Shown here: piece by piece, positions 19,337 to 22,487 of the stretch
Layout of the letters: each line of letters opens with the position of its first letter
Position numbering within the stretch: position 1 is the stretch's first letter
Assembly (NCBI GenBank): GCA_963708025.1
Contig: CAVPSB010000013.1
Location: forward strand, 643,564 to 707,563
DNA from: an uncultured Candidatus Rokubacteria bacterium
GTDB lineage: Bacteria; Methylomirabilota; Methylomirabilia; Rokubacteriales; DASRDR01
Direction: 5' to 3'
Length of the DNA stretch: 64,000 bases
Notes under the pieces: generated by a model
The model's input: the letters and a program-made list of their open reading frames with translations, nothing else
Database searches by the model: none
Told to the model about the DNA's origin: nothing
Program-made: the position numbers and the translations under genes

Positions 19337-20452
19337 ATGCCATCGGGACGAACGGCCGCGCAGATCGGGTTGGCCATCGTGGGGGGAGGCCGGATCGGCC
19401 TCATCCGGGGGGAGATCGCGGCCCGGCATCCGAGCGTCGGGTGGATCGGCCTCGCCGAATCCCGGGCCGACCGGGCCAAGGAGGTCGCCGAGCGGATCGG
19501 CGCCGATTTCGTGACGACCGACCACCGCGAGCTGCTGGCGCGGCCCGAGGTGACGGCGGCCGTCATCGCCACCGACGAGCACCTCCACGTCGATCCCGTC
19601 CTCGCCGCGGCGGAGCGAGGGCTGCCCCTCCTCATCGAGAAGCCGCTCGCCACCACCCTCCGGGAGTCGGCCCGCGTGCTGGAGGCGATCCGGGCCTCCG
19701 GCGTCGACGCCGTCGTGGGCTACACCCAGCGGTTCCGCCGCCGCTTCCTGGCCGCCAAGGAGAAGCTGCGGACCGGCCAGCTCGGCGACGTGACCCTGGT
19801 CACCTCGCGGGCCTTCATGAACCGGCTGGTGGCGCTCGACAACTACCGGCGGACCGACCGGCCCGAGACGATCTCGCCCATGGTCATCTCGGGCACGCAC
19901 GCGCTCGACCTGGTGATGTGGCTCCTCGACGGCAAGACCCCGGCCGAGGTCTACGCCCGCTCCGTGGACCGCGTGCTCGGGCCGTCGGTGCGGGGCATCG
20001 ACGCCACCGCCGGCCTGATCACCATGACCGACGGGACCCTCTATCACCTCAACATCTCCTGGGCGCTGCCCACCGTGTGGCCGGGCTCGGTGTACAGCCT
20101 GGAGATCGGGATCGTCGGGACGGACGGGGTCCTCACGATCGACGACACCCACCGCGACGTGATTCTGGCCACCACCCGACCCCAGGCCGCAGGATACACC
20201 CCGGAGTCCACTCGCCACGTTGACTTCCTCACCAGCTACCCGCCCGGCAACGTGGCGCTGGGCGAGCTGTGGGGGCCGATGCGGGAGGAGACCCAGGCCT
20301 GGCTCGGGCGCGTGGCCCTGGGCCACGCGACGCCGCACGCGACGGCCGCCGAGGCCCACGACCGCCTGATGCTGACCAAGGCAATGGACCTCTCGGCCCG
20401 GCTGAGGCGCCCGATCCCGCTCCCGATCACGCCCGACGACGAGACGCGCTGA
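19337..20452 (+). CDS. Gfo/Idh/MocA family oxidoreductase (paralogue 1)
   Basis: IVGGGRIG, LLIEKPLA, VGYTQRF, GTHALDL; AAGGAGG RBS. Confidence 0.9.
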   Translation: MPSGRTAAQIGLAIVGGGRIGLIRGEIAARHPSVGWIGLAESRADRAKEVAERIGADFVTTDHRELLARPEVTAAVIATDEHLHVDPVLAAAERGLPLLIEKPLATTLRESARVLEAIRASGVDAVVGYTQRFRRRFLAAKEKLRTGQLGDVTLVTSRAFMNRLVALDNYRRTDRPETISPMVISGTHALDLVMWLLDGKTPAEVYARSVDRVLGPSVRGIDATAGLITMTDGTLYHLNISWALPTVWPGSVYSLEIGIVGTDGVLTIDDTHRDVILATTRPQAAGYTPESTRHVDFLTSYPPGNVALGELWGPMREETQAWLGRVALGHATPHATAAEAHDRLMLTKAMDLSARLRRPIPLPITPDDETR

Positions 20453-20475
20453 GCGGCTGCGCGGGGAGGGCCGCC

Positions 20476-20985
20476 ATGACGAGCGATCCTACGCGGCGCG
20501 GCCTGGACCCCACGATCACCAAGCGCGAGGTCGTCTTCACCGTGACCGTGGAGGGGGTGACCCCGTTCCTGAAGGTCGCCACCGCCTGCCGCAACGGCGA
20601 GGACTCTTACACCTTCGTGTCCGACGAGGGCCCCCTCCTCGGGGGCCTCGGGTCGGCGCCGCCGCCCCTGGCCTACTTCAGCGCCGCCATCGCCTTCTGA
20701 CTCATGACCCAGGTGTCCCGGTACGGGCACATGCTGAAGATGCGGGTGGACCGGATGCGCATGCACGTCACCGCCCGGTACCGGGTCGACGGCTCGGTGC
20801 TGAACGACACCATCCAGGCCCGGATGGTCGGCGTCGAGACCCGGCTCGAGCTCGACTCCCCGGAGCCGGTTGACCGGGTCGCCCGCCTCGTCCGTAACGC
20901 CGAGCGGGGCTGCTTCGTCATGCAGGGGCTCCTCGAGCCGGTCCCGATCGCGGGCACCACGCTCCTGAACGGCCAGCCGCTGTGA
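20476..20985 (+). CDS. OsmC/Ohr-like protein with in-frame TGA (probable selenocysteine at codon 75)
   Basis: GGGAGG RBS; DEG..LGG.GSAPPPLAYFSAAIAF-TGA-LMTQ continues in frame to AERGCFV; TGA at 20698-20700 occupies the first conserved Cys position. Confidence 0.82.
20713..20730 (+). promoter_or_regulatory. bacterial SECIS-like hairpin
   Basis: GUG(U bulge)CCCG-GUA-CGGG-CAC starting 12 nt after the UGA; bulged U and apical GU as in the E. coli fdhF SECIS. Confidence 0.65.
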
Positions 20986-21430
20986 ACGCCCGGCTGCGGG
21001 CCCTTCTCCTCGCGACACTGGCCCTGAGCCTCCTCCCCGTGCCGATCGCCGGCGCGCAGCCGGCGAAGGTGCCCCGCGTCGGGCTCCTGGGGGTCGGTTC
21101 GGCCGAGGCGTCGCCGCTCTTCGAGGCCTTCCGGCAGAACCTCCGCGAGCTGGGCTACGTCGAAGGTCAGAGCATCGCCTTCGACGATCGCACCAAGGTC
21201 GAGCAGTACAGCCGCCTTGCCGACGTCGCCGCCGAGCTGGTCCGGCTCAAGGTTGACCTGATCATGGCGTACGGGACGACCGCGACCCACGCGACCAGGA
21301 AGGCGACGCGGACGATTCCGATCGTCATGGTCGACGGGGCCGACCCGGTCTCAACCTCAAGACCGCCAAGGCGCTCGGGCTGACGGTCCCGCCGTCGCTG
21401 CAGTTCCGCGCGGACCAGCTCATCGAGTGA
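20982..21430 (+). pseudogene. ABC_sub_bind substrate-binding protein with a large internal deletion
   Basis: N-terminus to IPIVMVDGADPV is joined out of frame at about 21350 to the family C-terminus NLKTAKALGLTVPPSLQFRADQLIE*. Confidence 0.85.
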
Positions 21431-21446
21431 GACAGGAGGCTCGACC

Positions 21447-22487
21447 GTGGCCATGCGACGCATCGGGGTGGGAGTGATCGGCACCGGGTGGATCGGCGAG
21501 ATCCGCGCCCGGGTCTGCGCGGAGCACCCGCTGGTGGAGAGCCTGCACCTGGCCGAGATCGACCCGGCCCGGCTCGAGCGGGTCGCGCGGGCCACCGGCG
21601 CCCGGTCGGCGACGCAGGACTACCACGAGCTCCTCGCCCGGAAGGACGTGGACGCGGTCTTCGTCTCCACCACCCCCGAGACGACCCACTACCCCATCAC
21701 CCGCGACTGCCTGCTGGCGCGGAAGCACACCTTCCTCGAGAAGCCGATGGGGCTCGAGCTGAAGGAAGCCGACGAGATGATGGCCCTGGCCCGCGAGGGC
21801 GACGTGAAGCTCACGATCGGCTACACCCAGCGCTTCAACCCCAAGTACGCCTACGTGAAGCAGTGCGTCGCCGACGGCACCCTCGGCCGGCCGGTCACCG
21901 CGCTGGTCAGCCGCAACGTCTCCCGCAGCATCGGGAACAAGATCGGCGGGCGCATCCGGCTGTCGCCGGCGGTCATGGAGGCGACGCACGACCTCGACTT
22001 CATCCTGTGGTGCCTGGAGGGGCTCCGGCCGACCCGCGTCTACGCCCAGTCCGTGTACCGGATCATGGAGCAGGCCCACGGCGTGCCCGACTGCACGTGG
22101 ATCGTGGTCACCATGGAGGACGGCACCGTCTTCACCATCGGCGCCGGCTGGGCGCTGCCCCCCGGCTATCCCCACTTCTCGTCGGCGACGATCGAGTTCG
22201 TCGCCACCGAGGGCGCGCTCCTCATCGACGACAGCCACCGCGACATCGTGCTGAACACGATGCAGAAGGGCATGGTGCTCCCCCTGTCCACGATGCCCGG
22301 GGAGCAGGTGGCCCACGTCTACCAGGGCCCGATGCAGGCCGAGACGATCCACTTCCTGGAGGTGGTGGCCCTGGGCCGCCCCGTCCTGGTGACGCCCGAG
22401 CAGGCCCGGCAGGTCATGGAGGTGACGCTGGCCGCCGACCTCTCGGCCGAGCGGAACCAGCCGATCCCCCTGCCCCTCCCGGCCTGA
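21447..22487 (+). CDS. Gfo/Idh/MocA family oxidoreductase (paralogue 2)
   Basis: VIGTGWIG, FLEKPM, IGYTQRF, ATHDLD; AGGAGG RBS. Confidence 0.9.
   Translation: MAMRRIGVGVIGTGWIGEIRARVCAEHPLVESLHLAEIDPARLERVARATGARSATQDYHELLARKDVDAVFVSTTPETTHYPITRDCLLARKHTFLEKPMGLELKEADEMMALAREGDVKLTIGYTQRFNPKYAYVKQCVADGTLGRPVTALVSRNVSRSIGNKIGGRIRLSPAVMEATHDLDFILWCLEGLRPTRVYAQSVYRIMEQAHGVPDCTWIVVTMEDGTVFTIGAGWALPPGYPHFSSATIEFVATEGALLIDDSHRDIVLNTMQKGMVLPLSTMPGEQVAHVYQGPMQAETIHFLEVVALGRPVLVTPEQARQVMEVTLAADLSAERNQPIPLPLPA

Follow-up and report, generated by a model that had tools for sequence, protein, structure and literature searches.

A probable OsmC-related selenoprotein gene with an in-frame UGA codon and a SECIS-type hairpin in a Rokubacteria genome

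The window analysed here, a stretch of 64,000 nucleotides from a Candidatus Rokubacteria genome, very probably harbours an intact gene for a 169-residue selenoprotein with the OsmC fold. By its sequence the gene is a member of the curated NCBIfam family NF041052, that of the 'OsmC-like, UxxT' selenoproteins. An in-frame UGA codon would be read as selenocysteine (Sec) by means of a downstream SECIS, and Sec75 would form a redox pair with Cys146. The evidence consists of the match to this family, the conservation of the UGA column, the SECIS-type features of the hairpin, the Sec machinery of the genome and the purifying selection acting on both halves of the gene. The original prediction, made from the sequence alone, had presented the gene as a hidden selenoprotein. 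It is not hidden in the sense of being unknown, because NF041052 and the OsmC-like UxxT family described by Zhang, Fomenko and Gladyshev in 2005 (PMC1088965) already cover it. In that paper three Sargasso Sea sequences (COG1765) make up an "OsmC-like protein" selenoprotein family, whose redox motif is listed as UXXT in Table 3 and for which a predicted SECIS is shown. This family reappears in reviews from 2022 and 2026, of which the 2026 one (PMC13188914) mentions a Methylomirabilota assembly that is predicted to have 63 selenoprotein genes. The family is already known, the phylum has already been reported as rich in selenoproteins, and current understanding is not challenged by the gene.

Reading frame, fold and surroundings of the gene

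When TGA was translated as Sec (U), a single frame of 169 codons followed by a terminal TGA (20983-20985) was read on the plus strand of the window at 20476-20985, beginning with the ATG at 20476-20478. Under translation table 11 the ORF list cuts this frame in two, with the first ORF ending at 20700 and the second starting from the ATG at 20704. The ORF list and the TGA = U translation agreed that the two same-frame ORFs compose one protein of 169 aa, as had been proposed. A Shine-Dalgarno-like sequence, GGGGAGGG (20463-20470, plus strand), is found just past the stop codon of the upstream gene (20450-20452) and is separated from the ATG by a 5-nt spacer, which bears out the good ribosome-binding site that had been claimed. 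The in-frame UGA (20698-20700, plus strand) is codon 75. It is directly preceded by PPLAYFSAAIAF and opens the UxxT motif (U75-L-M-T78), in which Sec occupies the first position; with TGA read as U, the residues around this column are YFSAAIAF-U-LMTQVSRYGH. The second redox residue, the candidate resolving cysteine Cys146, is encoded at 20911-20913 (plus strand) within AERGCFV. Both codons, 75 and 146, were found where the prediction had placed them.

The read-through protein matched NF041052, "OsmC-related (seleno)protein", with 158.3 bits (cut-off 95, E = 1.1e-46), residues 35-166 being aligned to positions 16-144 of the 144 positions of the profile, and the same match scored 149.5 bits in a six-frame search of the genome. 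It also matched the Pfam OsmC-like protein family PF02566 with 45.7 bits, the gathering score being 27.5. The best Foldseek match of an AlphaFold2 model built with 12 homologues (mean pLDDT 83.2, pTM 0.78) was 3cje (E = 2.4e-10, TM 0.64/0.71), followed by E. coli OsmC and several Ohr structures; the other matches listed were all OsmC/Ohr-type or unnamed structural-genomics entries, and 51 reach E ≤ 0.001. The best sequence match was again 3cje, with E values of 8.2e-15 for a single query and 5.1e-18 with a profile. In the sequence and profile alignments the Sec column is Cys in 3cje, 2opl, 2onf and 6mjn (the last one a weak match, E = 0.51), and the Cys146 column is Cys in 3cje and 2onf (YCF) and Ser in 2opl. 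The two redox residues thus lie at the OsmC/Ohr positions, as had been claimed, since U75 aligns with the first Cys and C146 with the second Cys of 3cje and 2onf. Cys146 was invariant in a 12-sequence alignment (A2), and so were R17, E51, R82 and R140.

The protein in the crystal structure 3cje is Jann_2040, titled an OsmC-like hydroperoxide resistance protein, of Jannaschia sp. CCS1. Both redox residues align between the two proteins, which read C-V-M-T-Q in 3cje and U-L-M-T-Q here around the first residue, and GCF in both around the second. Unlike the gene described here, 3cje has Cys in place of Sec and therefore needs no SECIS, and the identity is only about 25%. The Ohr/OsmC organic hydroperoxide reductases (1nye, 1qwi, 1n2f, 1zb9 and 6mjn) have the same fold (Foldseek E values from 4e-6 to 9e-4), but they form a different subfamily, with 12-20% identity, TM scores of 0.36-0.50 and Cys where the protein described here has Sec. 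With the OsmC-like selenoproteins (PMC1088965, NF041052) the gene shares the OsmC domain and the Sec in first position of UxxT, and with those of PMC1088965 also a SECIS directly after the UGA, with a G in the small apical loop. The examples published there come from marine metagenomes, whereas this gene and its nearest relatives are found in assemblies titled Rokuibacteriota or Methylomirabilota; nothing essential differs.

The database records reflect the table 11 reading. As anticipated from the claim that gene callers split the gene, the listed database homologues are mostly fragments, 114 of the 120 extending over no more than 53-55% of the protein. Two of these 114 that were aligned (P0066 and P0097) start with MTQVSRYG, directly after the TGA. 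Because the callers cut the gene in two, the active-site residue is lost from most public records of the family. In the few full-length database relatives (P0002, P0003, P0011 and P0004) the protein letter at the Sec column is S, L, W or C; S, L and W have codons (TCA, TTA and TGG) that are one base change away from TGA. These relatives may be real variants, errors or calls made under another code; P0002 and P0011 each come from a single contig, and two member sequences are recorded for P0003.

The gene is flanked on both sides by Gfo/Idh/MocA oxidoreductase genes on the plus strand (19337-20452 and 21447-22487), its ATG lying 23 nt past the stop codon of the upstream one. This arrangement was found in full only in one other locus (L059), and in another (L060) a single downstream gene matched both queries. 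The upstream and downstream genes each recur in 2 of 92 loci, relatives of ABC_sub_bind genes are present in 12 of the 92 at varying positions, and FAA hydrolase and HbpS-like neighbours were found in none of the 92. The flanking genes are thus not conserved, and the neighbourhood was discarded as a guide to function. An ORF at 20982-21383 (plus strand) overlaps the stop of the selenoprotein gene by 4 nt (GTGA) and matches only positions 20-95 of the 293 of PF04392, an ABC transporter substrate-binding profile. Because this match is partial and the next gene starts at 21447, the ORF has the appearance of a truncated remnant more than of a simple frameshift.

The hairpin downstream of the UGA codon

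Exactly 12 nt after the TGA, as the prediction had described, the sequence GUG-U-CCCG-GUA-CGGG-CAC (20713-20730) is found. It belongs to a SECIS-type hairpin (20713-20732, plus strand) identified by folding, covariation and synonymous suppression. In the upper stem CCCG (20717-20720) pairs with CGGG (20724-20727) around the apical loop GUA (20721-20723), and the lower stem has 3-4 pairs across a one-nucleotide bulge; RNAfold extends the hairpin to 20710-20736. Published constraints for bacterial SECIS elements (PMC13188914, legend of Fig. 2) are an apical loop of 3-9 nt with a G at its first or second position, an upper stem with 4 bp or more, a distance of 16-37 nt from the UGA to the loop and a minimum free energy of -7.5 kcal/mol or lower; the same review states that many bacterial SECIS elements are unlike those of E. 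coli. The hairpin, with its GUA loop, its 4-bp upper stem, a loop that begins 20 nt after the UGA and a folding energy of -11.3 kcal/mol (20707-20742), agrees with all of these values. We then turned to an ungapped alignment (A3) of 79 TGA-bearing rows, 69 of them distinct, from which the Cys form L131 and the truncated locus L133 were left out. When the criteria, as coded by us, were applied to A3, 72 of the 79 rows passed all of them and seven failed. The description of the hairpin as SECIS-like could therefore be upheld.

Thermodynamic stability was rejected as evidence for a SECIS. A 63-nt stretch folded at -17 kcal/mol, the mean of its shuffles being -20.3 kcal/mol (z = +1.10), and 172 of 200 shuffles were at least as stable; furthermore, a distant Cys-form paralogue has by chance a hairpin of -20.6 kcal/mol at the equivalent place, so that stability carries no weight here. 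When Rfam was searched with the whole window at gathering scores, and with 20650-20800 at E ≤ 10, no SECIS or other credible family was found.

Covariation was more informative. On A3, a register with a bulged U on the 5' side had 87.4% of the cells paired and a covariation of 0.222, and a register with the bulge on the 3' side had 89.1% of the cells paired and a covariation of 0.235; each was reached by 0 of 500 shuffles, a control that overstates significance because the rows are related. The stem sequences vary by clade yet stay self-complementary: UCCCG/CGGG(A), GAGCG/CGCUC, and GCUC/GAGC with a GGUC or GGUU loop. In the apical loop G24 and U25 are nearly invariant. As judged from the alignment, a 5' bulged U and a 3' bulged nucleotide fit about equally well, and in some clades the fold has no bulge at all or the loop is a GGUC/GGUU tetraloop. 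Both registers beat the 500 shuffles, and therefore the covariation supports the hairpin as a predicted SECIS, but not the bulged U in particular, the side of the bulge being left equal.

The synonymous codons point in the same direction. The fraction of minor synonymous codons was 0.033 in the six codons of the hairpin and 0.266 in the 96 other conserved degenerate codons (Mann-Whitney p = 1e-4, a significance that is likewise overstated by the relatedness of the rows), which corresponds to about eightfold fewer synonymous changes in the hairpin than in the rest of the gene. The single Cys form, L131, which is the only Cys orthologue that served as a negative control, has no hairpin (-0.8 kcal/mol). 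When the protein was compared by tblastn with 19 sub-cutoff paralogue loci, the alignment reached the Sec column in 4 of the 19, and therefore the paralogue control consists of one locus judged by eye together with L131. In the public runs the summed contig depth peaks over 20706-20734, with values of 382 and 882 in runs X1 and X3 and tens elsewhere; such a peak over the hairpin is expected if many related organisms of the metagenomes share this nearly invariant stretch.

The SECIS of E. coli fdhF is the bacterial archetype, a hairpin in the coding region 3' of the UGA with a G-U apical loop and a one-nucleotide bulge (a 5' U). The hairpin described here resembles it in lying in the coding region just 3' of the UGA, in its G-U loop and in a bulge below a short G+C upper stem. 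Unlike in fdhF, the bulge may lie on the 3' side, and several clades of the family are bulge-free or have the GGUC/GGUU tetraloop. The original prediction had likened the hairpin to that of fdhF for its bulged U and its GU loop: the GU of the loop was confirmed, but the bulged U was not, given that the 3'-bulge register fits about equally well.

Conservation of the UGA column and rival explanations

In a first set of 61 genomes (that of the window and 60 relatives), 13 had a match above the NF041052 cut-off. All 13 matches carry exactly one TGA, and they share the TGA column in the context AF-U-[L/M][M/L]-T-Q. When 251 genomes of the phylum were scanned, 53 matches above the cut-off were found in 47 genomes, and again each of them had exactly one TGA (53/53, or 52/52 without one match in the unpublished genome G132). 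The 18 sub-cutoff matches listed in the same scan (78-87 bits) were stop-free. A pattern-based scan with one genome per species yielded 80 loci, of which 79 have TGA in this column and one (L131) has TGC. The records are titled Rokuibacteriota/Methylomirabilota, Binatia, Deltaproteobacteria, Tectomicrobia, Chloroflexota, Verrucomicrobiia, Planctomycetaceae, Pseudomonadales and others; the loci were gathered with two peptide patterns, and the sample is biased in favour of SECIS-bearing members because one pattern is the peptide encoded by the hairpin. The alternation of TGA and Cys that was to be looked for among homologues was thus observed, both at these loci (79 to 1) and in the Cys of the four solved structures. 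All 79 rows of A3 retain the Thr codon of the UxxT motif (ACN), with columns A10 and C11 invariant.

The sequence past the TGA is conserved as well. With our own Nei-Gojobori script, applied to 41 distinct sequences (the window and loci of at least 60% identity), the median pairwise dN/dS was 0.17 over the 57 codons before the TGA and 0.24 over the 90 codons after it. As judged from these ratios, purifying selection acts on the gene both before and after the TGA.

Further OsmC-like sequences were observed in these scans. Many of the weaker matches of the relatives, below the NF041052 cut-off, also have exactly one in-frame TGA, and one of them (L058, G022:C215) has the TGA in the same column followed by a different hairpin; from such sequences the order seems to contain further OsmC-type selenoprotein subfamilies. 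The genome of the window itself has a stop-free OsmC-like paralogue (contig C33:1937-2308, L028 703-1887) of 81.4 bits, below the cut-off, which is the C-terminal end of a 394-codon open frame. Its first redox position, read by eye, is Cys (...AALAGCVTN), and the second site has no Cys.

The genome encodes the Sec machinery: selA, selB, selC and selD, whose presence the prediction had asked to be checked, were all found above their cut-offs. The tRNA-Sec scored 76.2 bits and was reported by ARAGORN as tRNA-SeC with the anticodon tca; selA (597.8 bits) and selB (371.9 bits) adjoin selC and one another on contig C32. The selD gene (398.4 bits, contig C7) has an in-frame TGA of its own in GAG-U-ACK. 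A second selD-like match (C23:88505-89419, L020; 270.3 bits) has no stop and is part of an 833-codon open frame, which points to a fusion protein with a SelD domain beside the Sec-containing selD. Among the 61 genomes, selA was above the cut-off in 52. Of the 13 genomes with the TGA form, four (G024, G029, G032 and G042, with 89-100% estimated completeness) yielded no selA. This was weighed as evidence against decoding, but most likely it reflects gaps in assemblies of 130-550 contigs.

Three other explanations of the in-frame TGA were weighed. The frame is interrupted under table 11 and at least one gene next door is truncated (the ABC_sub_bind fragment at 20982-21383), as if a nonsense mutation (TGC or TGT to TGA) had killed an ordinary Cys-type OsmC gene. 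Such a pseudogene is very unlikely, however, given that the same TGA is present in all 53 family-level matches (47 genomes) and in 79 of 80 loci of several phyla, that the codons past the TGA evolve under purifying selection (median dN/dS 0.24) and that a conserved SECIS follows it. An error of assembly or sequencing, or a code in which TGA means Trp or Gly throughout the genome, might be suspected from an assembly of 49 contigs with 8.18% estimated contamination and from the W that the database relative P0011 has at the Sec column. We regard it as extremely improbable. The codon at 20698-20700 is covered by contigs from four public runs of four studies, with no letters other than TGA listed at these positions; the best public run contains 0.49 of the sampled words, and one of the covering contigs (20460-20708) comes from an RNA library, which is evidence of neither transcription nor decoding. 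TGA is moreover an ordinary stop nearby, ending both the selenoprotein gene and the upstream gene, each match has a single TGA, which is always in the Cys column, and a tRNA-Sec with anticodon tca is present. A pseudogene and a sequencing error were therefore excluded on the conservation of the TGA and on the contigs of the four runs.

It could also be that the gene is truly split, with a 74-residue N-terminal peptide and a 93-residue C-terminal peptide, re-initiated at the ATG at 20704, assembling non-covalently. An ATG is indeed found two codons past the TGA in this gene, 49 of the 79 rows have one at codon +1 or +2, and the C-terminal piece is what gene callers report as a protein. In 30 of the 79 rows, however, no ATG, GTG or TTG occurs within four codons after the TGA. 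The break falls exactly on the catalytic Cys column of continuous homologues, and the active-site residue would be removed; a covarying SECIS and the full Sec machinery are present in addition. The rows that have no near start codon and the position of the break on the catalytic column thus leave a split gene with little credibility.

Proposed decoding and redox chemistry

With a UGA decoded as Sec as the preferred reading, the hairpin that lies 12 nt downstream, inside the coding region, would act as a bacterial SECIS during translation. It would recruit SelB with Sec-tRNA(Sec), whose anticodon is UCA, to the ribosome, so that Sec75 would be inserted at 20698-20700, with selC, selA, selB and selD supplied by the genome. 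In Ohr/OsmC proteins a two-Cys chemistry operates, in which the first Cys is the peroxidatic residue. Sec75 would be placed at the start of the long helix that carries this first, peroxidatic-type Cys in OsmC/Ohr proteins (modelled by AlphaFold2 at residues 64-86), and it would act as the peroxidatic residue. By analogy with the two-Cys chemistry of Ohr/OsmC, Cys146 would most likely resolve Sec75 through a selenenylsulfide, and the pair would most likely reduce a hydroperoxide or another oxidised substrate. The actual insertion of Sec, the Sec75-Cys146 couple and a peroxidase-type activity with its reductant are what we infer from these comparisons. In the literature, we found no biochemical study of, and no measured activity for, the OsmC-like selenoprotein subfamily.

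The SECIS lies within the sequence that encodes the catalytic helix, and therefore clades that differ in the RNA stem also differ in the residues that follow Sec, which read S-R-Y-G, A-R-S-S or E-R-Y-A. No Cys orthologue was found among the 53 family-level matches from 251 genomes, and one among the 80 loci of the biased sample. It is conceivable, although we consider it improbable, that this branch is obligately selenium-dependent in soil and groundwater lineages, with a chemistry or a substrate unlike the lipoyl-dependent peroxide reduction of Ohr/OsmC. If Sec were irreplaceable in this way, the OsmC fold would possibly have a new activity. The main value of the finding is in annotation: the correct reading of the gene adds one selenoprotein to the tally of the phylum.
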